Below are positions 35,390 through 53,665 of a stretch of 64,000 nucleotides of DNA, one piece after another. The stretch's first letter is position 1. Each line of letters begins with the position of its first letter. The DNA lies in assembly GCA_964491925.1 (NCBI GenBank), contig CAZBGZ010000001.1, positions 257,621 through 321,620 on the forward strand. The letters run 5' to 3'. Both the position numbers and the translations under genes were made by a program. A model generated the notes under the pieces. It was not told where the DNA came from and did no database searches. It saw only the letters and a list, made by a program, of their open reading frames with translations. This stretch comes from an uncultured Candidatus Saccharibacteria bacterium. GTDB lineage: Bacteria; Patescibacteriota; Saccharimonadia; Saccharimonadales; JAGQNJ01.

Positions 35390-36463
35390 TTATATGTTAA
35401 AACGAAATTCAACTATATCATCCGGTTGCATGATATAGTTTTTGCCCTCGAGGCGGACTTTTCCATTAGCCTTTGCACCAGCAACTGAGCCTGCCGATAC
35501 TAGGTCATCAAAACTAACTACTTCTGCAGCAATAAATCCTTTTTCGAAATCGCCGTGTATGACCCCTGCGGCTTTAGGAGCATTTGCCCCCTTTTTTACC
35601 GTCCAAGCCCGAACTTCTTTTTCGCCGGCAGTTAGATAACTCTGCAGACCCAGAGCATCATAAGCAGCATGGATTAGCTGGGTAAGGCCAGGTTCTTGCT
35701 GCCCATAACTTTCCATGAGCTCTCTTGCATCATTGCTATTAAGATCCTTTAGTTCGTTCTCTAATTTGGCACAAACAAATATGGCTTTGGCTGGGGCAAC
35801 CATTTCACTAAGTTGTTGCTTTTTATAGCTATCGGAAAGACCTTTTTCGTCCATGTTAAATAAGTAAATAGCAGGCTTAACTGTAATTAGATGAGTGCCC
35901 TTGATAAGATCAAAATCTAGGTCATCAACAGAGTGAAGTAGCTTTCCCTCATTGAGTAATTTTTGTGTTCGTTCTAGTGTATCAACAATAGGTTTTAGCT
36001 TGGGATTGCTCTTGGCTTCTTTAGCAATTTTTGGGAGCTGTTTTTCGATGGTTTGCAGATCCGCCAGCATGAGTTCTGTATTAATTACTTCAATGTCTTT
36101 CTCGGGATCGACTTTTTCATCAACGTGTACAACGTTAGAGTCGTTAAAGGCCCTGACGACGTGGCATAAAGCATCGGTGGAGCGAATATGGCCCAGAAAC
36201 TGGTTACCCAGACCTTCACCCTTGGATGCCCCGGAAACTAAGCCAGCAATATCAATAAAATTCACCGTTGCCGGGACGACAGGTGCGTTGTTATATATTT
36301 TTGCTAGAGCCGGCAATCGGTGATCCGGGATTGCTACTATGCCCGTGTTAGGCTCGATTGTTGCAAAAGGATAGTTTGCGGCTAGTATGTCGTTGCTCGT
36401 TAAGCTGTTAAAAAGTGTAGACTTACCAACATTCGGTAACCCAACTATTCCGATTGATAGCAC
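35390..36463 (-). CDS. ychF: Ribosome-binding ATPase YchF (Obg-family GTPase)
   Basis: G1 motif IVGLPNVGKSTLFNSLT and a C-terminal TGS domain. GTG start at 36463. Its first 41 nt overlap the 3' end of the upstream serine recombinase gene. Confidence 0.9.
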   Translation of the reverse strand: MLSIGIVGLPNVGKSTLFNSLTSNDILAANYPFATIEPNTGIVAIPDHRLPALAKIYNNAPVVPATVNFIDIAGLVSGASKGEGLGNQFLGHIRSTDALCHVVRAFNDSNVVHVDEKVDPEKDIEVINTELMLADLQTIEKQLPKIAKEAKSNPKLKPIVDTLERTQKLLNEGKLLHSVDDLDFDLIKGTHLITVKPAIYLFNMDEKGLSDSYKKQQLSEMVAPAKAIFVCAKLENELKDLNSNDARELMESYGQQEPGLTQLIHAAYDALGLQSYLTAGEKEVRAWTVKKGANAPKAAGVIHGDFEKGFIAAEVVSFDDLVSAGSVAGAKANGKVRLEGKNYIMQPDDIVEFRFNI

Positions 36464-38108
36464 GCAATCCTACCTTTCCACCTTCATTGGGTATGTTTGA
36501 GTTCCAATAATCGCTATCTTTAGCATTTAATCTTTCCTTTCCAAAAGAAGCAGGTTCCATAGCGGGTATAAACCCCCAGATTGTAACTTCTTCTTTCGTT
36601 GCTATTACTTTATCAACTATCTTGCGAACAGTAAAAAGCTTACCCTCGAAAGGTAGCTTCGTCATAAATTCATTAAAACCTTTTGCTAGGTGATCTAAGT
36701 CTATATTTTGGAATTGACTTAGTTTGTCTTCTGAAGGCTGTGACTGTAGCTTTAACAGTTCCTCACGGCGTTTACGGACACTTTTTATTTGTTCTTGATA
36801 AACCTCCTCGCTCATTAGTGCTTGACCATACATTTTTGCGTATCGACGTTCTTCCTCTTCTAGTAGTTTAAGATTTTGTTTAACGTCGTTGACTTTGGCG
36901 TTATCTCGAGCCATATCAATTTTCTTGTCGGCGTATCGCTGTACTTGCTGCTTAATAAGATCAGGGTTGGTTAAGAGATCACAAATTTTCTCCCAGCCTG
37001 TGGCATCAAGTACGGTTACATTAACGCCAGCCTCTTTGCAAACAGTAGGCAAGGGGAAGTTGTGAAGCCTGTCTGTGCAGCGATAATACTTTTTACCATC
37101 AGGACCATCGCCAACACGCTTAGCACCACAAGGACACCATACAAGCCCGCCAAAGAGGTATTTGTGTCGCTTGTTGCGTTGAGCAAATCTTGCATTCAAC
37201 TTAATCTGTTTTTGAACTTTATCAAATAAAGCCTCATCAACGATGACAGGTACTTTCACCATAAGCCATTCTTCTTTATTTCTAACTTTACGGCTGGTTT
37301 TGTTTGTGTGTCGGTGTTTATATTTCTGAGTCGATTTTGCTTGGGGGTTTTGTGGAAGTACAGCTTCTAATTTGTAGTAGTAATGTCGTCCAACATAGGT
37401 TTCGTTAGTTAGCAGTCTGCTTACCGGTCCTTTAGTCCAAGACGCTCGTTTACCTTTCTTTGGTGGAATTTCTAACTCATATAAGCGTCGAATAACCTCA
37501 CGCAGTGATATGCCCTCTATCCCAACCCATTCAAACATCATTCGAACTACTCTTGCTTCTTGCTCGTTAATCTCAAAGTAGCCATTTTTCTTATTTAACC
37601 CCTTACCTTTAACGGGTATGTAGTTGTAGCCATAGGGAGGGTTATAACCAAGAAGATTTCCGCCACGTACCTTATTCAATTTACCAAGCCGAAAACGTTC
37701 AGCAATTTTAACACGCTCGTACTCGTGAAAGACGCCCATAACACTGCCCATAAGTTGCTCTTCAGGAGTCGTGCCATTTACATCGTGCAGGCTTTTGAAC
37801 CCAACTCCCGAGTGTCCTAGTTCTTCTATGACAATTTCTTGGTACACAAACTTTCTGGAAAGCCGACCGCGATCAAAAACGTATACAATATCAAACTTAT
37901 TTAGCTTGGCATCTTGCCGTAGTTGATCTAGTGCAGGGCGTTCAAGGAATGCACCGGACCAGCCTTCATCTTTATAAATACAATCCTCAATAAGTATGCA
38001 GCCGTCTGCTTTGATAGCCTCACGAATTTCGTGAAGTTGGGTTTCAATCGTTTGCTCATCCTTTTGGTTATCTGTGCTAACCCTGGCATAGAGTGCAGCT
38101 CGTTTCAT
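36423..38108 (-). CDS. Large serine recombinase (phage-type integrase)
   Basis: N-terminal resolvase catalytic domain with catalytic Ser (ALYARVSTDNQKDEQ...DIVYVFDRGRLSR), a recombinase domain, a zinc ribbon (CPCGAKRVGDGPDGKKYYRCTDR) and a C-terminal coiled coil. 561 aa. Confidence 0.85.
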   Translation of the reverse strand: MKRAALYARVSTDNQKDEQTIETQLHEIREAIKADGCILIEDCIYKDEGWSGAFLERPALDQLRQDAKLNKFDIVYVFDRGRLSRKFVYQEIVIEELGHSGVGFKSLHDVNGTTPEEQLMGSVMGVFHEYERVKIAERFRLGKLNKVRGGNLLGYNPPYGYNYIPVKGKGLNKKNGYFEINEQEARVVRMMFEWVGIEGISLREVIRRLYELEIPPKKGKRASWTKGPVSRLLTNETYVGRHYYYKLEAVLPQNPQAKSTQKYKHRHTNKTSRKVRNKEEWLMVKVPVIVDEALFDKVQKQIKLNARFAQRNKRHKYLFGGLVWCPCGAKRVGDGPDGKKYYRCTDRLHNFPLPTVCKEAGVNVTVLDATGWEKICDLLTNPDLIKQQVQRYADKKIDMARDNAKVNDVKQNLKLLEEEERRYAKMYGQALMSEEVYQEQIKSVRKRREELLKLQSQPSEDKLSQFQNIDLDHLAKGFNEFMTKLPFEGKLFTVRKIVDKVIATKEEVTIWGFIPAMEPASFGKERLNAKDSDYWNSNIPNEGGKVGLRAINRNSWVTECW

Positions 38109-38288
38109 CTAATCTTTCCTTTTTGTTGTCCGCTTTTTAACGAACTCCTCAATAGCTTGTTCACTTATTCGATATCCACGACCAAGTTTTACTGCCTCTA
38201 ATTCGCCATTTTTTATATAGGTGAGAACGCTTTGCCAATGGACCTGTAAACGCTCAGCAACCTCTGTAACTGTTAGATACTTTTCCAT
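38109..38288 (-). CDS. Excisionase-family HTH DNA-binding protein (Xis/AlpA-like)
   Basis: 59 aa ORF not in the supplied track, found by translating the reverse strand: MEKYLTVTEVAERLQVHWQSVLTYIKNGELEAVKLGRGYRISEQAIEEFVKKRTTKRKD. Its TAG stop abuts the ATG of the serine recombinase. Confidence 0.6.
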   Translation of the reverse strand: MEKYLTVTEVAERLQVHWQSVLTYIKNGELEAVKLGRGYRISEQAIEEFVKKRTTKRKD

Positions 38289-38469
38289 AATTCATCCTTT
38301 CGTTACTATAAATAATTATAAACCATTATAAATAATAATACTACGGTTATGTTTGTTGCGCAAAGAACATATCAAACAAATAATCAAATACCTCATCAAC
38401 TGCATCCGCAGAGGCGTCTGGGCTAAGCCGATACTTAATCACTGGTTTAACAACTTTGCGCGGCATAAC

Positions 38470-38862
38470 TTACAGCTGTTCCTTCTTAAAAATTTGTTCC
38501 TCGACCATACCCTTATAGCGGCTTGATCGGTACCTGAGACCGTGACAATGCCTACAGGCTATTAGTGACACCTGTATATAAAGTTTTGCCACGCGGGTCT
38601 TACAGGCAGGGCAAACAAACCAATACCGTTGTCCGCCGTGTCCAGTAGACGTTGTTACTAAGTTAACTTGCATATCACCGATGTAAACTGGCTCCTGGAT
38701 GAGACTTTCTTCAAACTGTGTGCGAAGCGACTTTACAACCTCATCAACGCTAATTGAGTTGACGGCGTCACTTACTGGAGAGTTTCCGTAATCATTGCCC
38801 GACATTGTTTTGCCCCTCGGACTTATCTTGAGTCGTTGAGTTGATTTGTTGGTTCTGGGCAA
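38470..38862 (-). CDS. Hypothetical zinc-ribbon protein (mobile element)
   Basis: CPACKTRVAKL...CRHCHGL Cys4-type zinc ribbon in a 130 aa ORF. Confidence 0.4.
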   Translation of the reverse strand: MPRTNKSTQRLKISPRGKTMSGNDYGNSPVSDAVNSISVDEVVKSLRTQFEESLIQEPVYIGDMQVNLVTTSTGHGGQRYWFVCPACKTRVAKLYIQVSLIACRHCHGLRYRSSRYKGMVEEQIFKKEQL

Positions 38863-39439
38863 CGAAGGCGTTGTTAGCTTTAAAAGACACCTTTAGTGCC
38901 GGCTGCTTAAAGTGTTTAAGGGTATTTATAGCTGATAGATATTGCCTAGCACATCGGTCCACTTCTTTACTCAGAACAGAGTAATAACCGTTCTTCTCAC
39001 TACTTAGAAAGTCTATCCGGGTGATTGAATTGAGTTTGTAGCCATACTCGATCATCCGGCAATACGCCCAACCGGCTGTTTGTGCCAACATCTTTTCTGA
39101 AGCGGTCTTACATTCATATTCAGCTATGAGCTGATCGGTAACTTCGATTAAGAAGGTTCTGTATTTTTTGGTATCAAGTGTCTCAGCTAAAAGGTAGTGG
39201 TTTTCCAATGCGACTATAGCTGAAGCTTGCTCTAGCTTCTTGTTAAGATCATCAACCAATGCCTTTTTCTTAGCTGGGCTGCTTGCTTCGTACTCATTCC
39301 ACATATCAGCTGATTTTTTCAGCAGGGCAGCGGGGTCAATCTCAACTTCAACATTCTTCAGCATCCGCTTAACTTCATCGGGAGTGAACTCTTTAGTTAA
39401 TTTCTTTCCATTCTTTTTACTAGGTTTGTTATTGCTCAT
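38792..39439 (-). CDS. Hypothetical protein (mobile element)
   Basis: 215 aa. Overlaps adjacent ORFs in a typical compact phage/ICE gene arrangement. Confidence 0.4.
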   Translation of the reverse strand: MSNNKPSKKNGKKLTKEFTPDEVKRMLKNVEVEIDPAALLKKSADMWNEYEASSPAKKKALVDDLNKKLEQASAIVALENHYLLAETLDTKKYRTFLIEVTDQLIAEYECKTASEKMLAQTAGWAYCRMIEYGYKLNSITRIDFLSSEKNGYYSVLSKEVDRCARQYLSAINTLKHFKQPALKVSFKANNAFVAQNQQINSTTQDKSEGQNNVGQ

Positions 39440-39803
39440 ATTTCACCTCAATCCCGTAGTCATCATTCAGGTCGATGCCACTTAATGATCGTGGTCCAAT
39501 GCGAAGCGTGATATGAACAAGCTTTCTATCCCTTAGCATCTGTAGTAGATCCGGTGTGACCATATGGCGTGCATAGTCTAAGAACTGTTGCTGCATTTCC
39601 TCGGCATCATCGTACATAATGCAGCTTGAAGTATCCGTACAGCAGCTAGGTGCTTCTACATCTATGTGAACCCAAGAGAAGTGTTGTGGCTGATCCATCT
39701 CATCGTCATAGTGTTTCCCGTGCTGTTGACCTTGGTTTTTATCTGAAGCTTCGCTGTTCTTCTCTAAAACATCTATAGCTTGATCTATTGCATCGTGACT
39801 CAT
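39429..39803 (-). CDS. Hypothetical acidic protein (mobile element)
   Basis: 124 aa ORF with overlapping start and stop with its neighbours. Confidence 0.4.
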   Translation of the reverse strand: MSHDAIDQAIDVLEKNSEASDKNQGQQHGKHYDDEMDQPQHFSWVHIDVEAPSCCTDTSSCIMYDDAEEMQQQFLDYARHMVTPDLLQMLRDRKLVHITLRIGPRSLSGIDLNDDYGIEVKYEQ

Positions 39804-39806
39804 AAC

Positions 39807-40016
39807 TTAATCCCTTCGAATTTTGACGCGAACGGCAACTTCGTCGTAGACAGGCTTTTTATTCGGACAGCTGTCATAGCACGTTTTACAAACAGTTTTC
39901 TTGTTATAACGTTTCTTGGGGCAGAATACGCATTTGTCACCGAAAACTGCTTTGTGTAGTCCTTTACAAAAATCACCGTAAGTATCTATTCTTTTACACT
40001 TAGTATTCATAATCAT
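39807..40016 (-). CDS. Small Cys-rich zinc-finger protein (mobile element)
   Basis: 69 aa with eight Cys arranged in CxxC-like pairs. Confidence 0.4.
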   Translation of the reverse strand: MIMNTKCKRIDTYGDFCKGLHKAVFGDKCVFCPKKRYNKKTVCKTCYDSCPNKKPVYDEVAVRVKIRRD

Positions 40017-40059
40017 TTCTCCTCATTTAATCTATATAGCTTGTTTAGGGGTTGGCTTG

Positions 40060-41436
40060 TTAGGTCATAGCGTCCTCCTTCCACAGTGTCAGATTTTCTT
40101 TATTGGTTATTGACGCATCTGCATTGCGGATCGCCTTACATTCGTCACTCAGAAACCAATCAAAGCTACTGTCCAATTTCATAATCTTTTCAGGTTCGCC
40201 AACTCGTCCTTGGCTCTCTTGGCTGATAGTGCAAAGACCAAGTATTTTGAGCGACTCCATTTCTTTTAATGCAGTCGGCTTAGAACAGTTAAGAATCGCC
40301 TCAACTTCCGCAGTGCAGATTTCACCATCTAGTTCGAGTAATGCGCGGAAAAGACGAGTTCTGACCGTGGGAGCGCTATCTATGGCTAGCTCAATTGCTA
40401 GGCGCACATCATCCTTCGTCAGCTGTGTTCTTCCGTTAACCAAAGCGTGTCCTCGGCATAGGTTGTAAAAAAGTTGGTTAATACGGTCCGGCTTTTCAAC
40501 AGTCGGGGTAGTATAGCTGTACTCTGTGCCGTCTTCGCCTCGATCTCTCCAAAGATTAATTACACCCCGTAGACAAGCTAGGAGACGGGCGCAACGCGCA
40601 ATAATAAGCTTAAGGTCGCGCTCATCTTGGGCGTTATCCCAATCAAGCCCCTCAGGGTATTTAGACCAGAGCGTTTCAAGTAGATGTTTGGTTACGGTTT
40701 TACAGGCTTTTTCTTTGGTCTTATAGGCTGTAGAGCCAAGCTGTTCGGCAAGTTCGTCCTCAGACTTGTCTTTGGAGTTCATATTTAGGAAGAACAGCCT
40801 TGACCCAAGGTTGCCCATCATTTTCCATACCCGAGGTGGAATCGGTGTAGAAGCCGCCAGTACCATAAAAAGGTACTCGCCAACGTACTGACGTTGTCCG
40901 TGGATGCCGCTATCGGTGTTGAAGCCTTCGCCGTCAAGTACGCGAGTTAAAATTCCTAGGCACTCATTTAAGTCGTCATCACGCTTTGAAAACAAGGTTG
41001 CTAAGTCTCTGATCAGGAACAGTTTGTATTGTAGCCGCGGTAGTAAATCCACTTCCCTGAGCTTTTCTTTTTTGACATTGGCGGCATTTGAAACAAACGA
41101 AGCTGGCGTAAACTTATCTGTTGCGTATGTAAGCCCCTCGATCTCAGAGAAAAAGTTGATAGTGATGGTTTTACCTGCTGAAGGGACATCAACTAACACC
41201 AGAGCAAAGGGATTTGTAACATCTTTGATGAGGATTTGTGCAATAATCGACAAGCCAATTTCAGCAGCAAACAGTAGGTCGGGGAAGTTGTCATTTATAA
41301 CGCCTCGCCATTCACTGAATGAGATAGTTTCATCTGGTGTTGGGACCGCTAAAATACGGGGTGCGCTATCAAGGCTAACTGTTTCTACAGTATTTTGTTG
41401 TTCTTCATTTTCATTATCATTTTGCTTCATTGTCAT
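40060..41436 (-). CDS. P-loop NTPase, putative replication/primase-helicase-type protein of the mobile element
   Basis: Walker A LVDVPSAGKTITINFF near residue 90 and a downstream acidic Walker B-like DLLP. The size and position next to regulatory genes suggest a replication initiator or VirE/D5-like protein. Weak assignment. Confidence 0.3.
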   Translation of the reverse strand: MTMKQNDNENEEQQNTVETVSLDSAPRILAVPTPDETISFSEWRGVINDNFPDLLFAAEIGLSIIAQILIKDVTNPFALVLVDVPSAGKTITINFFSEIEGLTYATDKFTPASFVSNAANVKKEKLREVDLLPRLQYKLFLIRDLATLFSKRDDDLNECLGILTRVLDGEGFNTDSGIHGQRQYVGEYLFMVLAASTPIPPRVWKMMGNLGSRLFFLNMNSKDKSEDELAEQLGSTAYKTKEKACKTVTKHLLETLWSKYPEGLDWDNAQDERDLKLIIARCARLLACLRGVINLWRDRGEDGTEYSYTTPTVEKPDRINQLFYNLCRGHALVNGRTQLTKDDVRLAIELAIDSAPTVRTRLFRALLELDGEICTAEVEAILNCSKPTALKEMESLKILGLCTISQESQGRVGEPEKIMKLDSSFDWFLSDECKAIRNADASITNKENLTLWKEDAMT

Positions 41437-41441
41437 AGTCG

Positions 41442-41684
41442 TTACCTTGAATAAATCCTGTTCTTCATTAACTTGATGTTGTTAAAGTAGCTGAGTGGCT
41501 CAACGGATAATTCCTTCTGCCAGTAAGCTCGTACGGTATCCTCTAACTTGTCTTCTCTGCGAAAGACAAACTTCACTCTGCTAGGGTTATTTCTGTCTAG
41601 GGAGTGAAGGCGAAAACCGAGTGTTACAATGGTGGTACACAGCCCAAGGTCCGTTGTCTCAAAGTATTGATCGTCATCGTTCAT
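41442..41684 (-). CDS. Hypothetical small protein (mobile element)
   Basis: 80 aa ORF. Confidence 0.3.
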   Translation of the reverse strand: MNDDDQYFETTDLGLCTTIVTLGFRLHSLDRNNPSRVKFVFRREDKLEDTVRAYWQKELSVEPLSYFNNIKLMKNRIYSR

Positions 41685-41756
41685 TTAATTTCTCCATAGT
41701 GTTCTCACTTGTAATAAGCCAAAGAAGCCCAGGACATTGGAATTAACGGGGGTAAC

Positions 41757-41779: not shown

Positions 41780-41802
41780 TTATGGGGTAATAAAAAAGTT
41801 AA

Positions 41803-43248
41803 CTACGCGAAGCGTTGTCTCAGTTCAACAGTTCTCGGACTATTATTTTGTTCCAGGATGGTAGGGATGGTCTTTACTTGCTCAGTAGTATAATAACGGA
41901 TTGTTTTTATGCGCCGAGGTACTAAAATGCCTCTCGCATCCCATCGCTTAAGTGTTTTGGTGCTAATCCCTATAACATTAGCAACTTGGGATACGGTATA
42001 AAGATCATCTCTCTGATGGCGTTGTGCCATCTGTTTCTCAGCTTTTATTTTATTCAATTCAGTAACTATTCCTTCTCGGTATGGAACAAGAAATGCCGTT
42101 GCTTTTGAGCTGCGTAGTTTCGAGTAGAACGAAGTTTTAATGGCTTCCAATTCACCGGACCTAATCCAGTTTCGCAGTGTCTGGTCAGATATGCCAACTT
42201 GCCGAGCAATAGTACCCAGGAACAGATATTCTTTATTGTTCTTCTCGTCGATATAGACGTTAAATTCAACCCATTCGGATGCAGCTTTATTGTCGTAAAT
42301 GAGGATGTACTGTGCCATTAAGTGATGCACCAGACTATAAAAGACCGTCTGAGCTGCTTTTAATCCCCAACCCATACTTTTGTGTTCATTTTCCCTTAAG
42401 ATCTCTAGGCAAGTAGTTTGGATAATATGCTCGAACTCATCCTCGGTTGGCTCACGACCCTGTAATCGTTCAAGCCTATAATATTCACGTCCAAGCTTCC
42501 ACCACATCTTAGCTAATTGATATGACGCTATGGAGTCGCCTTCAGACGCTTTTACGACTAGATAGAAGTTGCTTTTTGATAGTAGCTTAAAAAAGTCTGC
42601 AAGAGGCTGGAATATTTTGCCGAAGTCAATATGACCAAAAACTGTACGTGTGAATTTGCTGATCTGCTCGACGCATTGTTTTAGGAAGTTGGTGATTGGC
42701 GGCGGTTTAAAATTGGCAAACTTTGATATGAATGTCTGTACTAATGGAGCGATACGGCTGGTTATCCCTGACCCAATTTTTTTGAAGATGCTAGAGAAGG
42801 AGGGAAGAGAATGTCTCAATGCCTCGAACATTTTTTGGATCTTCTCACCAAGCTGACGTATTGTTTCAAGCATCGGCTCCATTGTTCGAGCGATGCTCTT
42901 GTGAGCCTCTGCCATTTGTCGAGCAAGTTGAAGAGCGGGTTGTGTAGCTTGAAATGCCACGCCAACGCTCTTAAAGACTCGATTGATATTACTTTGAAAG
43001 CCAAGCGCCTTTGCTAGGTTACCCTGAACCGAACTAGTTGCAAAAGCTCCGCTCGTTCTCAGGCGTTCACTCAGAATTTCCTGGACATCTTTTTGCTGTT
43101 TTGTTGCTTGTTCACGCGCACGTTTAACAATAGTTAGCTCAACAGTTTTAGGCTCTACTTCAGTTTTCTTTTCTGTAGGGGCATCTAAATCAAGATCATA
43201 TTTTGTCTGACCTTGATTTACATTCTCATTTTTCCCCTCGTTTGACAC
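41803..43248 (-). CDS. Hypothetical protein with two C-terminal MerR-type HTH motifs and an N-terminal coiled-coil region
   Basis: GTIARQVGISDQTLRNWIRSGEL and VSQVANVIGISTKTLKRWDARGIL are both MerR/excisionase-type HTH. Confidence 0.45.
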   Translation of the reverse strand: MSNEGKNENVNQGQTKYDLDLDAPTEKKTEVEPKTVELTIVKRAREQATKQQKDVQEILSERLRTSGAFATSSVQGNLAKALGFQSNINRVFKSVGVAFQATQPALQLARQMAEAHKSIARTMEPMLETIRQLGEKIQKMFEALRHSLPSFSSIFKKIGSGITSRIAPLVQTFISKFANFKPPPITNFLKQCVEQISKFTRTVFGHIDFGKIFQPLADFFKLLSKSNFYLVVKASEGDSIASYQLAKMWWKLGREYYRLERLQGREPTEDEFEHIIQTTCLEILRENEHKSMGWGLKAAQTVFYSLVHHLMAQYILIYDNKAASEWVEFNVYIDEKNNKEYLFLGTIARQVGISDQTLRNWIRSGELEAIKTSFYSKLRSSKATAFLVPYREGIVTELNKIKAEKQMAQRHQRDDLYTVSQVANVIGISTKTLKRWDARGILVPRRIKTIRYYTTEQVKTIPTILEQNNSPRTVELRQRFA

Positions 43249-43482: not shown

Positions 43483-43710
43483 TTAAAGACCCTTAAAAAG
43501 GTCGCTTATATTCACTTTTAGTGTTTTTGCGATTTTGCTAAGTGTACTAAGTCGCGCCCATCTTTTACCGGTTTCTATATAGGCGATTGCAACTACGCTC
43601 ATATTGATGCGTTCTGCGAGTTCTTGTTGCGTAACTCCGCGACTCTTGCGAACCTCAGCAACCCTTCTGCCAAAGGCTTTCATTAACTTCTGCTCACGTG
43701 TACCTGTCAT
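43483..43710 (-). CDS. XRE-family (Cro/CI-type) HTH transcriptional regulator
   Basis: VTQQELAERINMSVVAIAYIETGKRWARLSTLSKIAKTL is a canonical XRE HTH. 75 aa. Confidence 0.8.
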   Translation of the reverse strand: MTGTREQKLMKAFGRRVAEVRKSRGVTQQELAERINMSVVAIAYIETGKRWARLSTLSKIAKTLKVNISDLFKGL

Positions 43711-43736
43711 ACACTAAGCGTAGAAATAATAAACAG

Positions 43737-43772
43737 ATAGTTACATAAACTAACTGTTTATTTTGTTGATAA
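43737..43772. promoter_or_regulatory. Candidate operator: inverted repeat AATAAACAG-N18-CTGTTTATT in the divergent XRE / DUF4352 intergenic region
   Basis: 9-bp perfect inverted arms read directly from the sequence, located between the divergently transcribed repressor and the DUF4352-like gene. Confidence 0.4.
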
Positions 43773-43818: not shown

Positions 43819-44382
43819 GTGAATTGGTTCAAAAAACACAAGATAATAACGGTAATTCTAGCGTTGGTAGTAGTTGGGGGCATTATAGGTGCAGCGGGTG
43901 GCGGTTCTAGCACCACCTCAAACCAGAGCAACAGTGGAAATAATAATGCGTCTGAGAAGACCGAAGAAAAAGCAACAACGGCTAAAATTGGTGAACCAGC
44001 ACGCGACGGTAAGTTTGAATTTACAGTAACCAGCATTAAATGTGGTGAGAAATCAGTAGGAGACCAATACTTAAACGAAAAGGCGCAAGGTGAGTTTTGC
44101 CGTCTTAGTCTTAGCATTAAGAACATAGGTAATGAGGCTCAAAGCCTCTTATCAAGCGACCAAAAGCTATTAAACGCCGAGGGTCAACAGTTTGCTGCCG
44201 ATGATACAGCTACCATCTACGCATCCTCAGGCAATTCAGGTAGCACTTGGTTTGACCAAATAAATCCTGGTAACAGCGTAAAAGGTGATATTTTGTTTGA
44301 CGTACCTGCCGGTGCAAAGATTACCACTGCTGAACTGCACGATAGTTCTTTCTCAGGTGGCGTAAAAGTAAACCTCCAGTAG
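43819..44382 (+). CDS. DUF4352-like membrane-anchored/secreted protein
   Basis: N-terminal TM/signal anchor, a low-complexity Ser/Asn/Gly linker and a beta-rich domain (KFEFTVTSIKCGEK...GEFCRLSLSIKNIGNEAQSL...DILFDVP) typical of DUF4352 proteins often found in prophage regions. Confidence 0.5.
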   Translation: MNWFKKHKIITVILALVVVGGIIGAAGGGSSTTSNQSNSGNNNASEKTEEKATTAKIGEPARDGKFEFTVTSIKCGEKSVGDQYLNEKAQGEFCRLSLSIKNIGNEAQSLLSSDQKLLNAEGQQFAADDTATIYASSGNSGSTWFDQINPGNSVKGDILFDVPAGAKITTAELHDSSFSGGVKVNLQ

Positions 44383-44532
44383 TTAGAAGCCCGCGATTAA
44401 ATTGTTTTTACAAGTTTAGATTATCAGCTCGCCCAACAGAGAGCGAGAGATTGACACGCACCTTAAAATATGATAGTATGTAGCTAGTTAGATAACAAAA
44501 ATAAAAACCTAACGCTACAATAAGAAATTACT

Positions 44533-46512: not shown

Positions 46513-46809
46513 AACCTTTAATTTTAGCCCTTTCTTTTCTTCTTTCTCTTTTATCTAACTACCTACGAACAATAGGTTCGGGGTAAGTAGTCCAAAGGCT
46601 AAAGTACCTATCGGTGCCCCGAGTGGATTGTTGCTTACATCTAGCGTGAAAAGACTTTCCGAGCGAAAGCGGATCTTTTTATAGCAGTAAGCACATCAAG
46701 AACCTTTTACACCCCACGGATCTCCAACGATAGCGTCGTAAATGATGCTGAAAAGAAGAGAGGTCCTTATTTTCTGCGGATTATAAGGAACGAGACGTCT
46801 TGGAGAATT

Positions 46810-46922
46810 AACGGTCGACAGGTGGCTGAACGTGCCGAACTCCTACGTGAACAACGATGGTAAGCCGAACCTGAACAACTCGAATGCCGAGAATGAGAAT
46901 GATGCTCGGCTCGCGGTGTGGT
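46810..46922 (+). repeat. DGR template repeat (TR)
   Basis: Intergenic copy of the VR. Translated in the VR frame, it carries AAC (Asn) codons at all six variable codon positions (W L N V P N S Y V N N D G K P N L N N S N A E). Confidence 0.8.
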
Positions 46923-46936
46923 GTATCAGTGTTAGT

Positions 46937-47275
46937 CTAATGCACGCTTTTGAGCCAGCCGCCAATCATTCGGCGTGCTTCGCTCAGGCGTGCTTGGACT
47001 TTTAGTACACTCGTTTCGTTGGCGAGCTTTAGTTCAAGAATGGCTCTAAGATGCAATGAGGTCATTTCGGCAAGAGCGTTTGCCCTAAGGAGGTAACTTG
47101 CTTTCATCGGTTTTGGAGCGTGTTTTGCTAATAGTAGCTGTTCTAGGGTATCTGACCAGCACTTTGCTGCTTGTTCACCGAGTGAATAACGGTATTTCTT
47201 ATCCAACTTAGTATTTAATTCCAGTAATTTTTTGTAAATCTCAAAGGCAATGGTGATGACAGGTAACTCTTCCAT
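46937..47275 (-). CDS. avd: DGR accessory variability determinant (Avd-like four-helix-bundle protein)
   Basis: Starting from the internal Met of the 46937..47413 ORF (MEELPVITIAFEIYKKLLELNTKL...YLLRANALAEMTSLHLRAILELKL...EARRMIGGWLKSV). It parallels the Avd/TIGR02436 pattern (...LYAADAGLAMLRFWLRFL...ILGGWIARV in the Bordetella Avd). Confidence 0.6.
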   Translation of the reverse strand: MEELPVITIAFEIYKKLLELNTKLDKKYRYSLGEQAAKCWSDTLEQLLLAKHAPKPMKASYLLRANALAEMTSLHLRAILELKLANETSVLKVQARLSEARRMIGGWLKSVH

Positions 47276-48221
47276 AGATATCAGTTTAGCAAACGTATGG
47301 CGTTCGTTTGTAGCTTTTCGTAAGGGCAAAAAACCAAGCCGTGTTATTACAGAATTTGAATACGAATTACTTGATAACATCCTCAAATTGACTACTGAAC
47401 TCCAAACTGGCACTTACAGGCACGGTCCATATTCTCATATGATCGTTAATGACAACAAGCGACGAGACATTGCTGTGGCGTCTGTTCGCGATAGAGTTGT
47501 GCATCGATTGCTTTACGATTATTTAGTTACAATCTGGGATAAAACGTTCATTTACGATGCCTGGTCGTGCAGGCAGAACAAAGGTTTGCATAGTGCAATA
47601 GATAGAGCGCAAAAATTTATGCGGCAACATAAAGATGGTTGGCTTTGGCGCGGGGACGTAACAAAGTTATTTGACTCAGTTGACAAGAATACGCTGTTAC
47701 GATTACTGAGACGACGGGTAAGTGACCCGACAGCCTTGTGGCTACTGAGTGAGACGATAGAAAGTTATCATAGCTTTGATAATAACAGAGGTATCCCAAT
47801 CGGCAATCTCACTAGTCAAATCCTAGCAAACATCTACCTAAACGAATTTGATCGTTATATCACGCACAGAATAAAGCCGAATGCGTACCTTCGTTATGGC
47901 GACGATTGGTTATGCTTTATGGACGATAAGGCAAAACTAGAAAACGCACGTAAAAAGGCAGAAGACTTTCTGGGGTGCGAACTTAACCTGGATGTTAATC
48001 CTAATGTAAACCTCATAAATCCTGTGCGTAAAGGGGTGTCGTATCTGGGTGTTGATCTTTGGTCGTCAGGACGAAGACTTGATAAGGACGCACAAAATAA
48101 AATGAAACGAAACTTAAATGTGCGTAACGCAGCAAGTTATAAGGCACTGATGGTTCATAACCAATCGATAAAGCAAATTCGACGCTTTGATTGGATCATT
48201 CAAAGTATTAACGAGCCATAA
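47250..48221 (+). CDS. DGR reverse transcriptase
   Basis: RT motifs include the N-terminal FRKGKKPSRVITEFEYEL...GTYRHGPY, RDRVVHRLL, the DGR-specific IPIGNLTSQILANIYL (IGxxxSQ in place of QGxxxSP) and the catalytic RYGDDWL (YxDD). Confidence 0.85.
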   Translation: MVMTGNSSIDISLANVWRSFVAFRKGKKPSRVITEFEYELLDNILKLTTELQTGTYRHGPYSHMIVNDNKRRDIAVASVRDRVVHRLLYDYLVTIWDKTFIYDAWSCRQNKGLHSAIDRAQKFMRQHKDGWLWRGDVTKLFDSVDKNTLLRLLRRRVSDPTALWLLSETIESYHSFDNNRGIPIGNLTSQILANIYLNEFDRYITHRIKPNAYLRYGDDWLCFMDDKAKLENARKKAEDFLGCELNLDVNPNVNLINPVRKGVSYLGVDLWSSGRRLDKDAQNKMKRNLNVRNAASYKALMVHNQSIKQIRRFDWIIQSINEP

Positions 48222-48405: not shown

Positions 48406-49275
48406 ATGCTTCACAAGTACGGTTACACCTTTATTGAAATTCCAGTCAATAAAATTCAAAGAGATGTAAATCAGCCACGTCGTGATTTCGGCACAGAAGG
48501 TGACACCAATAGGTTATTACTGTCTATTAAGCAGTACGGTATAGAAAACCCCATCTCAGTTAGTGAGCTAGAAGATGGTCGTTACATTATTATTGATGGT
48601 CACAGGCGTTATATTTGCGCTCAGAAGCTTGGTTATGAGCAAGTTCCTTGTCGGGTGTATCCCAAATTATCAAATGCTGAACTAGAAACACGTAGGTATG
48701 AAATCCAAAACAATCGTCGTTCCTGGAAGCCAATGGAGCGATCCGAAGCCTTAGAAAGAATTAAGGCTGAAAAGGGCTTTTCAAGCAACCGTCAGCTCGC
48801 AGATCACTTAGGTATAACAGAAGCTGTGGTTGCTAATTCGCTCCAACTTCGTAAGCAAAAAATGGATTACATTGAGTTAATGGAGCGTTACGATTTAAGT
48901 GAAAGTTACCGTATCGAATTTGTAAGACTTAAACCGAAACTACGCAAAATCCGTAGTGTGGAAGTGGACGACATAATCATTAATCTTTTTAATCGTATCC
49001 AACACAAGGTTATTAAAAATGCCAAGGAACTACGCAAGCTCGGCAGTATATTCTTGCGGGCAACGGCGAATGAAGAGGAGCTGGCTCGATACTTAGCAGA
49101 TCCCGATATGACGGTCCACGAGCTTGAACAGAGAACCCTACAGTCAGGTTTCTCCTTGCACATTGAGCAACTCATCAAAGGCATTAGCCAGAAGAGAGCC
49201 GAAGGCGTTGCGTTTAGTTCGCAAGAGAAGGCTTTTCTTGATCAACTTAAAAAACTACTAAACGAGGCGCTATAG
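48406..49275 (+). CDS. ParB-like N-terminal (ParB/Srx nuclease) domain protein
   Basis: IIIDGHRRYICAQKLGYEQVPC is the ParB-type GxRR box. 289 aa with a helical C-terminal half. Confidence 0.6.
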   Translation: MLHKYGYTFIEIPVNKIQRDVNQPRRDFGTEGDTNRLLLSIKQYGIENPISVSELEDGRYIIIDGHRRYICAQKLGYEQVPCRVYPKLSNAELETRRYEIQNNRRSWKPMERSEALERIKAEKGFSSNRQLADHLGITEAVVANSLQLRKQKMDYIELMERYDLSESYRIEFVRLKPKLRKIRSVEVDDIIINLFNRIQHKVIKNAKELRKLGSIFLRATANEEELARYLADPDMTVHELEQRTLQSGFSLHIEQLIKGISQKRAEGVAFSSQEKAFLDQLKKLLNEAL

Positions 49276-49282
49276 GTAAAAA

Positions 49283-50629
49283 ATGTTTGGCACGGAGGGT
49301 ATAAAGAAAAAAGCGGTGGCATATTATCGCCACTCAGCAGAAGATAAACAAGAAAACTCTGTCCCTATACAGCGAGACCAGGCTAATGAGTTTGCGGCAA
49401 AGTATGGCATTGAGATAATCCACGAAGAGGCTGATGAAGGTAAAAGTGGTTTATCAGCTGCACGTCCAGGTTTTGAACGACTGTTTGAAGATTGGGTTTT
49501 AAACCCAGATGCTCAGGAGTTTGATTATATACTCGTGTTAGATGTTACGAGGTGGGGGCGTTTTCAGGACCCTGACGAAGCTGCTTATTGGGAGATGCAG
49601 TGTAAGAAAAGAAACAAAAAGGTGATATACATTTCCAGAGGTTTCCCAAAGGAAGAGGAAAAATTGCTGTCTAGCCTTGAAACATCAATCGGTCGGTATA
49701 TGGCTGCTGAATATAGCAGGCAGTTAAGCGATAAGGTGTGGCACGGGAGTATGAAAATTTCTGAGCAGGGATTTTCAGCTGGTGGTACAGCGCCCTATGG
49801 GTATGTGCGCGTGCTATTTGATGAGAACAAGGAGAGGGTCGGCATACTAAAAAAGGGCGAACACAAGGTTATAGCAAATCAACGGGTTACTTTTGAGCCT
49901 GCGAATGATGGCTCGGAGCAAGTAGTAAAGGATATATTCGCAATGTTTGTAAAGCGGGGCATTCCGCCCGAAGACATCGCTAATCAATTAAACGAAAATG
50001 CCGTTGTGTCAGCCACGGGTAAGGTGTGGGATGCGTCTAAGGTTGTTCGCGTCCTGGGTAATGAAACCTACACGGGGACTAAGTTGTATAACAAAACCTG
50101 GAGTCGACTAAAGCAAAGACAACGCAAAAATCCCGTAGAAGAGTGGGTCAGGTGCGAGGATGCTTTTGAAGCGTTGGTTAGCCGTAAAGATTTTGAATTT
50201 GCCCAGGAGCAACTTTACTGGTCTATGCCGTCTCGTTGGAGGCACGGCATACACAAGGTCAACAGAACGCGCCGCTCAATCGAGGATTATGTAGATAAGC
50301 TAGTAGAAAGCTACGAAGATGACAGGCGCTATCAAGTTCGTAAGCGTCTGCCGGTAACGTTCGGGCTAACGTACTATCAAGATGGGGTAGCTAAAAGGTG
50401 TTTCAAGATCACCGAAGAAATGCGTAAACACAGCGAAATTATAGGAGTTAGTGTCAATATGTTTGCAAAAAACAAAATAGATGCAGTGTTTTCGTTGCCA
50501 ACGCATAATTTCGGGATCGGTAATTACTGGGTAGTCAATGATGCAGATAAAAATACACCTGACTACAAGATAGAAGGTGAGGACATCAATACCAAAGTCC
50601 TCAATCTATGCAACAGCATAACCCTCTAG
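49283..50629 (+). CDS. Large serine recombinase (second copy family)
   Basis: Resolvase catalytic domain AVAYYRHSAEDKQENSVPIQRDQ...EADEGKSGLSAARPGFERL...DYILVLDVTRWGR, then a recombinase domain. 448 aa. Confidence 0.8.
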   Translation: MFGTEGIKKKAVAYYRHSAEDKQENSVPIQRDQANEFAAKYGIEIIHEEADEGKSGLSAARPGFERLFEDWVLNPDAQEFDYILVLDVTRWGRFQDPDEAAYWEMQCKKRNKKVIYISRGFPKEEEKLLSSLETSIGRYMAAEYSRQLSDKVWHGSMKISEQGFSAGGTAPYGYVRVLFDENKERVGILKKGEHKVIANQRVTFEPANDGSEQVVKDIFAMFVKRGIPPEDIANQLNENAVVSATGKVWDASKVVRVLGNETYTGTKLYNKTWSRLKQRQRKNPVEEWVRCEDAFEALVSRKDFEFAQEQLYWSMPSRWRHGIHKVNRTRRSIEDYVDKLVESYEDDRRYQVRKRLPVTFGLTYYQDGVAKRCFKITEEMRKHSEIIGVSVNMFAKNKIDAVFSLPTHNFGIGNYWVVNDADKNTPDYKIEGEDINTKVLNLCNSITL

Positions 50630-50641
50630 CTCCTGGGTTTG

Positions 50642-52219
50642 TTAAGAACTACGCTTTTTTAGGGATATAGCTAGTATGGCATTGGTAAGATGATGGATGT
50701 TTATAGGGTTTTGCCACATTACTTTTGTGATTGTAACGTGATGTTCGCGTGGGTATCTATAAGTGTTCTGTTGAATGATTACCTCATCATTAACAGCTAA
50801 CTTATCAAACAGAGCCTTACAAAAATGGCGTCGGATGGCTGGATCTGCATTGATATAAGCCTTGGAAAAATTTAATTCTTTGACCATTTTTAAAGCACGA
50901 GCCTGACGTCCATCAATAATCTTTAATCGTCTGGTTGCCTCCGTAATTACTCCTTGAGCTTGGCGTGTTTCTTCATTAATACGTTTCTGCTCACTCTTGA
51001 ATAGGTCCGCAGAGATAACTTTGTCATAGTACGTTTGGAGTAAATTTTCCTTCTCTGCCTGAAGCCGCACTACCCGCTGAGTTTGAGCTTTGGTATCAGT
51101 TTCAGCGTAGGCTCTTTCACTGCCAAGCTCGTTTTCAATTTGCTCAGATAACTTTTGGCGATCTGAAGCAGATAGGTTTAGGATTTTAAGCTGGTTGATA
51201 ACTTCTTGTTCTATCTTCTGAGCCGGTATGTATGGTTGGTTGCACTGTTGATTTTTACGGTTTAAACACGAATAGTATTCATACTTATGTTTACTGACCA
51301 TATAACATAAGTGCCTATTACACCGACTGCACAGCAACAACCTGGATAGGTAATGGTTGTGGCTGCGATTTTTTCGGCTCAAACAATATCGACTTTCACG
51401 GATAGCTTGACCGGCGGCAAATACAGCAGGTGTTACTAGCGGTTGATGATTACCATTGTACTCAGTACCGCAATACGTTACATAGCCAAGGTAGTAGCGG
51501 TTTTGTAGAAGTTTATTAAGACCACCGTGGCTTATCGGCTCTACCTTTGACCGAGAACGAAGCCTGGTACGCAAACCACGTTTAGATAGTTGGTCTAATA
51601 ACTCTAACTCACTGTAATCACCCGTTGCGTAGCACTCGAAAGCCCAGCGTATAAGTGGCGCTCGTGATTGATCTAGGGCAACCGTATGAACCTCGCGCCT
51701 GTTAACACGCTCCGTCACATTTACGTATCCGATTGGTGCTTGGAAGGGTGTACCTCCTCGCTTGGCTTTTTCAGTTGCTCCTTTCAATGCCTCAGCTGCT
51801 AAGTTTCTGCTATAGAATTCAGCAATAGTTGCCATTATGCCGTGCAGCAACCTACCGGATGGTGTTTCGTCTATATTCTCTGTTACGGAGACAAGCGTCG
51901 CCCCAGCTTTTTTAATCGCTAAACCGATCATTACATCGTCGTGAAGATTACGAGCCAACCGGTCTATTTTGTGGACGATAACGCTCTGGATATTTTGTTT
52001 CTTGTCACATAAGTCGTGTAGCAATCGTTGTAATTCCGGTCTGGATGCTGAACGAGCTGACTCGCCACGATCTGCATACTCCCTTATGCGAGTAGCACCC
52101 AGCTCTTTAGCTTTTCTTCTGCACGCTTCACGTTGTGCAGGTATAGAATAACCCTCTCGCTGATTATTTTTTGTTGCTTGGTCGAGTGTTGAAACTCGTA
52201 AATATATTGCTACCTTCAT
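50642..52219 (-). CDS. Large serine recombinase (third copy) with zinc ribbon
   Basis: VAIYLRVSTLDQATKNN...YADRGESARSASRPELQRLL...VIVHKIDRLARN catalytic domain, a recombinase domain and the zinc ribbon CSRCNRHLCYMVSKHKYEYYSC. 525 aa. Convergent with 49283..50629. Confidence 0.85.
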   Translation of the reverse strand: MKVAIYLRVSTLDQATKNNQREGYSIPAQREACRRKAKELGATRIREYADRGESARSASRPELQRLLHDLCDKKQNIQSVIVHKIDRLARNLHDDVMIGLAIKKAGATLVSVTENIDETPSGRLLHGIMATIAEFYSRNLAAEALKGATEKAKRGGTPFQAPIGYVNVTERVNRREVHTVALDQSRAPLIRWAFECYATGDYSELELLDQLSKRGLRTRLRSRSKVEPISHGGLNKLLQNRYYLGYVTYCGTEYNGNHQPLVTPAVFAAGQAIRESRYCLSRKNRSHNHYLSRLLLCSRCNRHLCYMVSKHKYEYYSCLNRKNQQCNQPYIPAQKIEQEVINQLKILNLSASDRQKLSEQIENELGSERAYAETDTKAQTQRVVRLQAEKENLLQTYYDKVISADLFKSEQKRINEETRQAQGVITEATRRLKIIDGRQARALKMVKELNFSKAYINADPAIRRHFCKALFDKLAVNDEVIIQQNTYRYPREHHVTITKVMWQNPINIHHLTNAILAISLKKRSS

Positions 52220-52356
52220 AGCTGTCCTCCTTTATTGTTTTGTCTTTTTATAATGACCCCTATATAGAGACGGAGCCGTTATTAAGCAGAAGGGGGTTGA
52301 TCTACTTTAGGTTTGTGATATACTAAAAGTTAAAGTTTAAAGTAAAGGTATAAAGT

Positions 52357-53364
52357 ATGATAACTTCAAACTTACAAGTAACACTTCAAAAGCTCACAGA
52401 TAAGAAGGGCCAACTTCAAAAATTGCGTCCATTATCTGCTGATTATCTCAAAAACCTAGCCGAGTGGTTTAAGGTTGAGTTGACCTATAACTCAAACGCT
52501 ATTGAGGGCAACACGCTTAATCGTCGTGAAACCGCACTCGTAATAGAAAAGGGCGTTACAGTTAAGGGCAAAACATTAACTGAACACCTAGAGGCTACCA
52601 ACCACGCCGAAGCAATTGATTACGTTAAAGATTTAGCAGCTAATACTAAACAGCAAGATCTCACCAAGCAAGACGTAATGAACATTCACAAGCTCATTTT
52701 GCAAAAGATTGATGATGAAAACGCAGGAAAGTATCGCAACGTGCCGGTTGCAATAGCTGGTTCTGATGTTGAGCTACCTGATCCACTTAAAGTACCTGAG
52801 TTAATGGAAGAATTTTTTACTTGGCTAAAGAGTAAAAGCGACACACACCCAGTCATTGTAGCTGCCGATGCTCACTACAAACTAGTCCGAATACACCCTT
52901 TTGTAGATGGTAATGGACGAACTGCACGATTGCTTATGAACTTACTTCTTATGCAAGCCAACTATCCCATTACCGTTATTGGCAATGATAAGCGAGAAGA
53001 TTATATCAATGCTCTAGAAAAAGCTCATATGACAGGCGACCTGAATGATTTCTATTCGTTGGTTACTAAAGCTGTAGACAGCTCACTTGATGTGTATCTT
53101 GGTAATAAGAAGCCTAGGGGAGTTAAAGAGGAGCGTCTACTTAAGATTGGCGAACTAGCTCGGGCCAGCGATGTGCCAACTAGTACAATACGTTTCTGGA
53201 CCAATGAGGGTCTGTTAAAAGTAGCTAAAACTACTGAAGGTGGCTACAGATGGTTTAACGAGAGTAGCCTAAAGACAGTTGAAAAAATCAAAGAACTACA
53301 AGCTAAGCGGCTAACGCTTGATGAGATTAAATCTGAAATCAATAAAGCAAATCTGACGTCCTGA
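52357..53364 (+). CDS. Fic-family protein (AMPylase/Doc-type) with C-terminal MerR-type HTH
   Basis: Fic motif HPFVDGNGRTARLLMNLLL. C-terminal IGELARASDVPTSTIRFWTNEGLL...GGYRWF is a MerR-family HTH. Confidence 0.85.
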   Translation: MITSNLQVTLQKLTDKKGQLQKLRPLSADYLKNLAEWFKVELTYNSNAIEGNTLNRRETALVIEKGVTVKGKTLTEHLEATNHAEAIDYVKDLAANTKQQDLTKQDVMNIHKLILQKIDDENAGKYRNVPVAIAGSDVELPDPLKVPELMEEFFTWLKSKSDTHPVIVAADAHYKLVRIHPFVDGNGRTARLLMNLLLMQANYPITVIGNDKREDYINALEKAHMTGDLNDFYSLVTKAVDSSLDVYLGNKKPRGVKEERLLKIGELARASDVPTSTIRFWTNEGLLKVAKTTEGGYRWFNESSLKTVEKIKELQAKRLTLDEIKSEINKANLTS

Positions 53365-53424
53365 TTGGCTTAGTAGACTTTCTTCGCTAGTTTTTCGGTG
53401 TATTTGTCTGAGTATCCACGCTTA

Positions 53425-53440
53425 CCTCTATCGGTAGAGG
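53425..53440. other. Perfect palindrome CCTCTATCGGTAGAGG downstream of the Fic gene, near the right edge of the mobile element
   Basis: Read directly from the sequence. Candidate recombination or protein-binding site. No T-run follows. Confidence 0.4.
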
Positions 53441-53665
53441 GCATCTTGAAGGTTAGTTTAAAAGGTAGGGTAGCGTCCCAACAATACCAATTGATAATGA
53501 CATAGCCTTAATTCTAACAGAGGTAGTGACGTTTTGCCACAATTTATCTTTTGAATAGGATTTTATTATTGTACCAATTATCCATCAGTGAATGTTGAAA
53601 TTTTTTACCCCTTTAACCATAAGCACGGATAATGTATATTATAAAGTAACGAGAAAAATGAGACA

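Follow-up and report, generated by a model that had tools for sequence, protein, structure and literature searches.

Within a 64,000-nt stretch of the genome of an uncultured Candidatus Saccharibacteria bacterium (contig CAZBGZ010000001.1, hereafter the window), some 17 kb of DNA carrying three large serine recombinases (LSRs) and a diversity-generating retroelement (DGR) separates the body of the housekeeping gene ychF from a type IV pilus operon. This raises the question of what kind of element the block represents, where it ends and whether it is one element or several. The initial annotation, made from the letters alone, had proposed an integrative element rather than a prophage. Domain searches (Pfam and NCBIfam) recovered the genes that it listed, at or near the positions given for the integrase and excisionase genes (int and xis), the XRE-family repressor with its palindrome, the P-loop protein and the short open reading frames (ORFs), and confirmed the three LSRs, the DGR, the DUF4352 and ParB-like proteins and the Fic protein with a helix-turn-helix (HTH) domain. 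We conclude with good confidence that the block is one 17,037-bp integrative element of Candidatus Saccharibacteria, probably self-replicating in a plasmid-like manner. All features are listed in Table 1; related loci and contigs are designated by L numbers.

Reading of the junction sequences places the element at 36452-53488, inside codon 6 of ychF and not, as first supposed, between ychF and the pilus locus; the borders, annotated at 36423 and 53665, are at 36450/51 and 53487/88. With a slash marking the crossover, the left junction reads on the minus strand ...GGAAAGGTAGGATTGC GTG CTA TCA ATC GG/A ATA GTT GGG TTA CCG AAT GTT GGT AAG, which translates as V-L-S-I-G-I-V-G-L-P-N-V-G-K, the P-loop of YchF, and the right junction reads ACCTCTGTTAGAATTAAGGCT ATG TCA TTA TCA ATT GG/T ATT GTT GGG ACG CTA CCC TAC CTT T. 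The crossover dinucleotide GG/CC (36450-36451 and 53487-53488) is the centre of a 54-bp imperfectly palindromic attP. The element-side flanks of the junctions (36453-36477 and 53461-53485) are inverted repeats of each other (I11), and in the joined attP the two 26-nt arms are symmetric about the central GG at 20 of 26 positions; imperfect palindromes of this kind had been suggested as something to seek at about 36.4 and 53.4 kb, and they indeed flank the ends of the element. The predicted attP is GGAAAGGTAGGATTGCGTGCTATCAATCGGTATTGTTGGGACGCTACCCTACCTTT, with ...GCTATCAATCGGTATTGTTGGGACGC... as the core of the circle junction, and the predicted attB is ATGTCATTATCAATTGGAATAGTTGGGTTACCGAATGTTGG, which corresponds to some 40 bp at the beginning of the ychF coding sequence, in a P-loop region conserved across the phylum. 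The sites have the traits of serine-integrase att sites: a short imperfect dyad, a crossover dinucleotide at its centre and the absence of a long direct repeat. In motif searches, each att motif occurred exactly twice in the 64-kb window, and no third ychF-like att site, such as tandem elements might leave, was found there. Together, the junctions identify a reaction in which LSR1, the integrase encoded next to ychF, would recombine attP with the ychF attB, exchanging strands at the GG in codon 6.

The same junction recurs in other hosts. In seven host ychF alleles (the window, L118/L126, L119/L122/L124, L120, L009, L098 and L108), attL is the same through ...GCGTGCTATCAATCGG, which ends in ATCGG, and is host-specific from the next base onward. 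LSR1 is 78-94% identical among the elements inserted at this point. Taken together, the proteins of the element copies share 78-98% identity, against only 54-70% for the ychF genes of their hosts (L009, L108, L109 and L118).

An insertion in codon 6 would be expected to separate ychF from its start, and the element supplies a substitute. In the present gene, the element contributes codons 1-5 together with the first base of codon 6 (36452-36463) and the host all the rest, so that the YchF N-terminus is now VLSIGIVGLPNVGKS instead of the ancestral MSLSIGIVG. This P' half-site provides ychF with a new Shine-Dalgarno sequence (AAAGGTAGG), a GTG start and five codons; since the P' arm rebuilds the translation start, the host gene stays intact. 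One short arm therefore does triple duty, as a half-site for the integrase, as the 3' end of the int coding sequence and as a new start for ychF. The original codons, ATG TCA TTA TCA ATT, are orphaned at 53489-53503, 17 kb from the rest of the gene, and the native promoter-like motif ACCTCTGTTAGAAT is retained with them within the attR/orphan region (53489-53540); a matching motif (CTCTGTTAnAAT) lies directly 5' of intact ychF in relatives. Stripped of its own promoter, ychF would now be read through from the xis-int operon. We also observed that the orphaned promoter and start (53489-53540, minus strand) point into the element, where they would give rise to a 16-aa peptide, MSLSIGIVGTLPYLLN, and to a transcript antisense to fic. 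In many Saccharibacteria (L008-L037), a motif (C)CTCTGTTA[ATG]AAT is present 20-45 nt 5' of the ychF start and may represent an extended -10 promoter consensus of the phylum.

Integration also alters the integrase gene. In the integrated form, the last 8 codons of LSR1 and its stop (36423) are host ychF DNA read in another frame, and these residues vary by host. LSR1 has more than 1000 homologues, and the close ones examined end in ychF P-loop DNA read in the +2 frame, which indicates that they are all integrated copies. When attP is reconstructed, the ORF extends by 38 codons (53486-53373) to give a 591-aa integrase that is colinear with the unsplit homologues P0120, P0088 and P0109, which have a related tail motif at equal spacing from a conserved GLR. 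Moreover, homologous tails, in the corresponding frame, can be read at the right ends of L112 and L113 (HSQDATIPFKLTFSMPPLDKRTRGYTPKY... and HSEVLTQLPFELKCKMPSPDHGKRGYSDKK..., respectively), even though the integrase body of L113 is only 48% identical to LSR1. These alignments show the 38-aa tail to be a conserved part of the integrase, which integration removes. A 599-aa integrase in L120 was considered as a free-form enzyme and rejected; it is an integrated copy with a long host-encoded read-through. The excisionase-type HTH gene lies directly 5' of LSR1, and the identical protein is found in 56 blocks of a public assembly collection; it is the candidate directionality factor, and excision would presumably use it.

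The split gene could act as a built-in sensor of the integrated and the free state, with a tail-less enzyme made from the integrated copy and the 591-aa enzyme from the circle. A possible extension, which we put forward tentatively and regard as rather doubtful, is a two-state device: full-length LSR1, with the tail LPFxLxxKMPSxDxGKRGYSDK, would be made only from the free circle and drive integration, the tail-less enzyme of the integrated copy would differ in activity or directionality, possibly together with Xis and LSR2, and ychF would come under transcriptional control of the element.

Contig ends in public assemblies bear directly on the free and empty forms. We used Logan contigs (k = 31) from samples SRR14932609, SRR14092352 and SRR14092372, which are 100% identical to the window, and also examined SRR14932608. 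In SRR14932609, L003 ends at 36479 (36449 + 30), L004 ends at 53488 and L001 starts at 53459 (53489 - 30), and these ends fall where they should if attP is present alongside attL and attR: a de Bruijn graph breaks in this way at the point where a second junction, identical in its element sequence as far as the CC/GG, departs from the first, which is exactly the behaviour of the predicted attP. In the sister sample SRR14932608, the assembly runs unbroken over both junctions. In SRR14092352 and SRR14092372, contigs end 28 nt past the GG and their last 31-mer begins at the element-specific C before it, the pattern expected if an empty attB coexists with attL. Read in this way from contig ends, the attP-type and attB-type breaks together would narrow the exchange down to the GG. 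SRR14932609 shows the signature of attP but not that of attB, as would fit a free form that replicates.

The synteny comparison called for by the initial annotation revealed that the site is empty in most relatives; the block is not fixed in all of them. Among 31 Saccharibacteria ychF loci, a match to LSR1 was found upstream of the gene only in L009 (90%) and L017 (33%), and most of the others have the promoter-like motif directly 5' of an intact start, several with the end of pilM ∼100 nt away. In a search of 185,579 species genomes, the closest ychF matches were from metagenome-assembled genomes of Candidatus Saccharibacteria/Saccharimonadales (57-69%), followed by Actinomycetota (57-61%), and the pilus-ychF-ftsJ-efp neighbourhood is common to the window and those Saccharibacteria genomes. 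Two further start types were noted. L030 carries the start-region signature of the L113 subfamily (ACAGGTTGGGTTAAATG in both), and in L017 (821-855) and L032 (∼9830-9863) a distant LSR family (33% identical to LSR1 in L017) abuts the ychF start and has its own start, GGAAAGGTCAAyyATG. These start types indicate that the 5' end of ychF is a recurrent target of several serine-recombinase lineages.

Table 1. Features of the integrated element and of the ychF gene it occupies (window positions)
Feature	Position	Strand	Basis and details
ychF, present reading (357 aa)	35390-36463	-	Pfam MMR_HSR1 and YchF-GTPase_C
LSR1 integrase, integrated form (561 aa)	36423-38108	-	Pfam Resolvase, Recombinase, weak Zn ribbon
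attL	36425-36477	-	Host B' half-site to 36449, GG 36450-36451, element P' half-site 36452-36477
Excisionase-type HTH protein	38109-38288	-	Pfam HTH_17; TIGR01764 'excise' 54 bits, cut-off 28.8
Four short overlapping ORFs (130, 215, 124, 69 aa)	38470-40016	-	Two with Cys4 zinc-ribbon motifs
P458, 458-aa P-loop protein with C-terminal winged helix	40060-41436	-	Inferred replication helicase/initiator
22-nt motif AAYCRATAAAGMAAATYYGACR, three copies	40087-40108 (-), 48163-48184 (+), 53337-53358 (+)		0.00 expected
DUF5659 protein	41442-41684	-	Pfam, PHROGs, NCBIfam
481-aa protein with two C-terminal MerR/excisionase-type HTHs	41803-43248	-	Pfam, PHROGs, NCBIfam
XRE-family repressor	43483-43710	-	Pfam HTH_3
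Operator-like palindrome	43728-43742 / 43748-43762		Divergent intergenic region; 15-nt arms, 93% complementary
DUF4352 protein, N-terminal membrane anchor	43819-44382	+	phrog_806; weak match to superinfection-exclusion families
Exchangeable DGR cargo cassette	44477-48162	+	Breakpoints 44476/7 and 48162/3 from L119/L114
DGR target gene	44533-46512	+	Variable repeat (VR) 46398-46510 at 3' end, stopping 2 nt before the stop
Template repeat (TR)	46810-46922		113-nt repeat with VR
avd	46937-47275	-	bAvd 25.5 bits, NF033474 35.9 bits; both full length, below curated cut-offs
DGR reverse transcriptase (RT, 323 aa)	47250-48221	+	RVT_1 62 bits; last 59 nt past the cassette breakpoint
ParB-like protein	48406-49275	+	Pfam, NCBIfam
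LSR2 (448 aa)	49283-50629	+	Pfam, NCBIfam; no Zn ribbon detected, R-x-S present
LSR3, full LSR with Zn ribbon	50642-52219	-	Pfam
Fic-MerR protein, HPFxDGNGR motif (HPFVDGNGRTAR)	52357-53364	+	Pfam; PADLOC SoFic E=2.9e-32, PDC-S04 E=1.9e-36
Severed int 3' part, 38 codons and stop: YCWDATLPFKLTFKMPSTDRGKRGYSDKYTEKLAKKVY	53370-53486	-	In the LSR1 frame only in the circular attP form
attR and orphaned ychF 5' end	53461-53540	-	P half-site 53461-53486, crossover 53487-53488, host B half-site beyond

The genes next to int and xis point to how a free form might be maintained. Sequence searches of Pfam, PHROGs, NCBIfam and PDB gave no match for P458. Homologues of the protein (62-73% identical) are the C-terminal parts of ∼730-aa proteins with N-terminal Toprim or PrimPol primase domains, and a P458 profile matches the T7 gp4 primase only via the fused part. 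We infer that P458 corresponds to the helicase half of such primase-helicase fusions and would have a role in replication, and the fusions lend support to an early guess that it is a replication-type protein. The ParB-like protein scores 72.6 bits with TIGR00180 (cut-off 58.45). P458 and ParB support a plasmid-like free form; the circle would presumably be replicated by P458 as helicase/initiator and stabilised by ParB and LSR2. The four short ORFs are kept in the element family (64-98% in L009 and L108), and they gave no significant family match in Pfam, PHROGs or NCBIfam.

The alternative that survives best, although we consider it improbable, is a phage satellite or defective prophage that keeps a lysogeny module and phage-type cargo (the DGR and the superinfection-exclusion-like DUF4352 protein) and needs a helper phage for packaging and transfer. 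The XRE repressor, operator palindrome and divergent promoter region have the look of such a module, as has the int-xis pair; DGRs and DUF4352/phrog_806 proteins are common in phages, and one relative of LSR2, a distant one, is on an IMG/VR contig. However, searches of the hypothetical ORFs and other element proteins against Pfam, PHROGs and NCBIfam yielded no capsid, terminase (small subunit included), portal or tail family and no relaxase or type IV secretion system, nor did Pfam and NCBIfam give a coupling protein or FtsK-type translocase; for capsid, terminase and tail genes, this is in keeping with the initial annotation. The tape-measure and terminase matches obtained are weak and fall on the coiled-coil and HTH parts of the 481-aa protein. 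Virion and conjugation genes were likewise absent from the window and from more than 10 related copies. Among 50,697 phage records and 72,556 plasmid records, whole-element searches for near identity returned nothing, and IMG/VR scans with the DGR target, LSR3 and P458 found no relatives. Gene content is 86-98% conserved across hosts, which is not the picture of a decaying prophage, and the element's own putative helicase and ParB point to plasmid-like maintenance.

The initial annotation had also raised the possibility of two nested or tandem elements (∼36.4-48.3 and ∼48.4-53.5 kb), each with its own integrase. As an account of the whole block this is very unlikely, although the block is modular inside: LSR3-Fic is an addition and the DGR is separately exchangeable. 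The LSR3-Fic segment (∼50630-53368) sits between the stop of LSR2 and the stop of the severed integrase tail. In favour of two elements, this segment is missing between LSR2 and attR in L112; a 32-nt direct repeat (48163-48194 / 53337-53368, 81%) brackets ParB-LSR2-LSR3-Fic; and L114 and L119 become homologous to the window again at exactly 48163. Against two elements, there is a single pair of ychF att sites, and the contig breaks join 36450 with 53488. Moreover, the ParB-LSR2 pair is present in L109, L112 and L113, and also in L111. In L109 (LSR1 78-79% identical) it adjoins core genes, and L113 (LSR1 48%) is a 12.9-kb element running from ychF-LSR1-xis to ParB-LSR2, after which come two small ORFs and attR. 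L112 has its attR, together with an orphan ychF start, ∼165 nt beyond LSR2. The placement of the pair in these three loci, just before attR in L112 and L113, makes it the right-end module of the family and not a second element. In the circle of L112, LSR2 would be convergent with int across attP; in the window, LSR3-Fic intervenes.

A nested insertion inside RT through the 32-nt direct repeat was also considered and rejected, because the RT C-terminus past the repeat aligns with six RT homologues: it is native, and nothing is inserted in the gene. The 32-nt repeat (48163/53337) is part of the set of three 22-nt motif copies, each of which overlaps the last 9-20 codons of P458, RT and Fic, respectively, in the orientation of the gene. 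The motif is kept at the P458 ends of L009 and L108, it is element-specific across 1.7 Mb of loci, and its second copy marks the breakpoint of the cargo cassette; it could be a site for LSR2, LSR3 or ParB. For LSR3-Fic itself, no convincing terminal repeats, inverted repeats or att-like ends were found. The segment is kept at ∼93% nucleotide identity in L114-L117, and the Fic protein scores 43.9 bits with the NCBIfam SoFic model (cut-off 550). LSR3 and the SoFic-like Fic gene would be cargo specific to the lineage, the latter with a putative role in defence.

All three recombinase ORFs are intact. PF00239 and PF07508 were found in each, and the catalytic serine motifs are kept: YARVST in the LSR1 homologues, YYRHSA in LSR2 and YLRVST in LSR3. 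PF13408 gave 40.6 bits with LSR3 and 19.7 with LSR1 (cut-off 25.3), and was undetected in LSR2.

The DGR constitutes an exchangeable cassette. Of the 8 differences between TR and VR, 7 fall on adenines of TR, and RT and Avd lie beside TR, as expected of a DGR. The avd gene, at first drawn on the RT strand, is on the minus strand and RT is on the plus strand; we observed that the avd start (47275) and that of the longest RT ORF (47250) overlap by 26 nt, divergently. All related DGR cassettes (L088-L093) have this opposite-strand layout. A 3.5-kb cassette takes the place of the segment 44477-48162 in L119/L114, and the backbone on both sides is 89-94% identical to the window. This alternative cassette (L119 8065-11558 in window orientation; L114 1-2377) has genes for three proteins, one of 710 aa that is kinase-like at its C-terminus, one of 281 aa and a membrane protein of 168 aa, and the final 59 nt of the RT gene survive in it as a remnant. 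The DGR cassette of the window, with targets 81-94% identical, also travels on unrelated backbones that carry ParA, a primase-helicase and a tyrosine integrase.

Sample data add to this picture. In SRR14932608, contig L007 ends at 44478, the left cargo breakpoint, which suggests that both cargo variants coexist there. In SRR14932609, positions 46408-46490 within VR are unassembled, and both flanking polymorphic positions are TR adenines; the 31-mers common to TR and VR cannot account for the breaks. The gap suggests a heterogeneous VR in the SRR14932609 population, but variant reads were not observed. In L097 (4064-7398), a DGR target cassette stands beside ychF without LSR1, with a 96-aa gene intervening, and in L098 (1342-6426), ychF-LSR1 is fused directly to a partial DUF4352 gene and a target with a frameshift; both loci have the appearance of copies that have decayed or been rearranged.

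The left flank of the element consists of ychF, a bPH protein, crp, ftsJ and efp. On the right, the type IV pilus operon (PilM, PilB, PilT) is preceded by an orphan gene of 1039 aa (53666-56785, plus strand), directly 5' of pilM. This gene is host DNA, present in the flank contig L001; it has no match in Pfam, NCBIfam or PADLOC and may encode a lineage-specific pilus-associated protein. Promoter and terminator scans did not rise above shuffled sequence (27 promoter-like motifs against a mean of 32.2, and 11 terminator-like against 15.1), no tRNA genes were found, and a search of 34-56 kb gave no Rfam families.

Several points weigh against a mobile, self-replicating element. The attP and attB junctions come from de Bruijn contig stops, neither having been read directly, and the breaks could in principle also arise from a second host strain that differs exactly at the bases beside the GG. 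Replication is deduced from domain fusions in homologues; the AlphaFold2 model of P458 (22 sequences) is poor (pLDDT 59.8), with the ATPase core unmodelled, and Foldseek matches its C-terminal winged helix only. No replication origin was identified and the element holds no ParA partner for ParB. As deduced from sequence, the roles of LSR2, LSR3, the HTH protein as directionality factor and the integrase tail are putative. The lack of a direct junction read and the existence of deletion variants such as L098 might favour a fixed island, no longer mobile, in which the contig breaks are strain microdiversity or assembly noise, but this has almost no probability given the near-identical elements in seven host alleles, the identical Xis in 56 assembly blocks, the contig ends on the exact predicted crossover base (three in one sample, two in others) and the intact recombinases.

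A single integrative and probably plasmid-like element thus remains the reading that we favour. Its implications are practical as well as biological. To our knowledge, Saccharibacteria and other members of the candidate phyla radiation (CPR) have tiny genomes, few described mobile elements and very limited genetic tools. The element belongs to a widespread family. With attP, attB, the crossover, the integrase and a candidate replication gene defined, it provides the components for integrating DNA at a specific site in these organisms and perhaps for a shuttle replicon. If the two-state reading were true, the family would also be a ready natural vector for Saccharibacteria, able both to replicate and to integrate at an attB common to the whole phylum. 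A conserved gene is here occupied at no cost, by an element-borne look-alike of the start of that gene.

Literature searches returned no description of serine-recombinase or ychF elements in Saccharibacteria. A pneumococcal prophage located between dnaN and ychF, immediately upstream of the latter, forms a circle on excision and alters ychF expression; its site is a 14-bp direct repeat in the promoter (PMC6375853). The present element differs in that it is inside the ychF coding sequence, and the pneumococcal prophage has another integrase system. For an att site of a serine integrase inside the int gene, we found no precedent in literature searches; the precedent for a tyrosine integrase is the myxophage Mx8, in which attP lies within the int coding sequence and integration gives a recombinant int with a new 3' end (PMC6070905). 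Mx8, however, is a complete tailed phage with a tyrosine integrase, whereas here an LSR is concerned and the severed short tail is conserved across the family.

Phages and elements such as A118 in comK, SPbeta in spsM, skin in sigK and Bxb1 in groEL1 usually inactivate their target gene until excision. The present element shares with them an LSR, a short dyad att site and a 2-bp crossover within a coding sequence; unlike them, it rebuilds the start of the gene, and it is not a phage. Staphylococcal cassette chromosome elements (SCC, such as SCCmec) encode the LSRs CcrA (∼449 aa) and CcrB (∼542 aa), insert at the 3' end of rlmH (orfX) and carry a helicase-type gene, Cch. In its workings, the present element is closest to an SCC-type cassette. 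The likeness to SCC includes LSR insertion at the end of a housekeeping gene that is kept intact, a helicase-type gene, modular cargo, recombinases of unequal size (LSR2 of 448 aa and LSR1 of 591 aa) and the lack of conjugation or virion genes. However, the element is from another phylum, targets the 5' end of ychF, has its recombinases at opposite ends and not adjacent, and has attP inside int; with Ccr models it scores 37-118 bits against cut-offs of 700-900, and it is not a member of SCC. Finally, DGRs of CPR bacteria were reportedly described by Paul and colleagues in 2017. As in DGRs of CPR bacteria and of the phage BPP-1 type, the cassette has an RT, Avd, an adenine-specific TR/VR pair and a VR at the 3' end of the target. 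It differs from them in the opposite-strand avd, in a target without recognised family or signal peptide and in behaving as a module swapped between different mobile backbones. DGR cassettes here circulate as cargo modules among the mobile elements of CPR bacteria.

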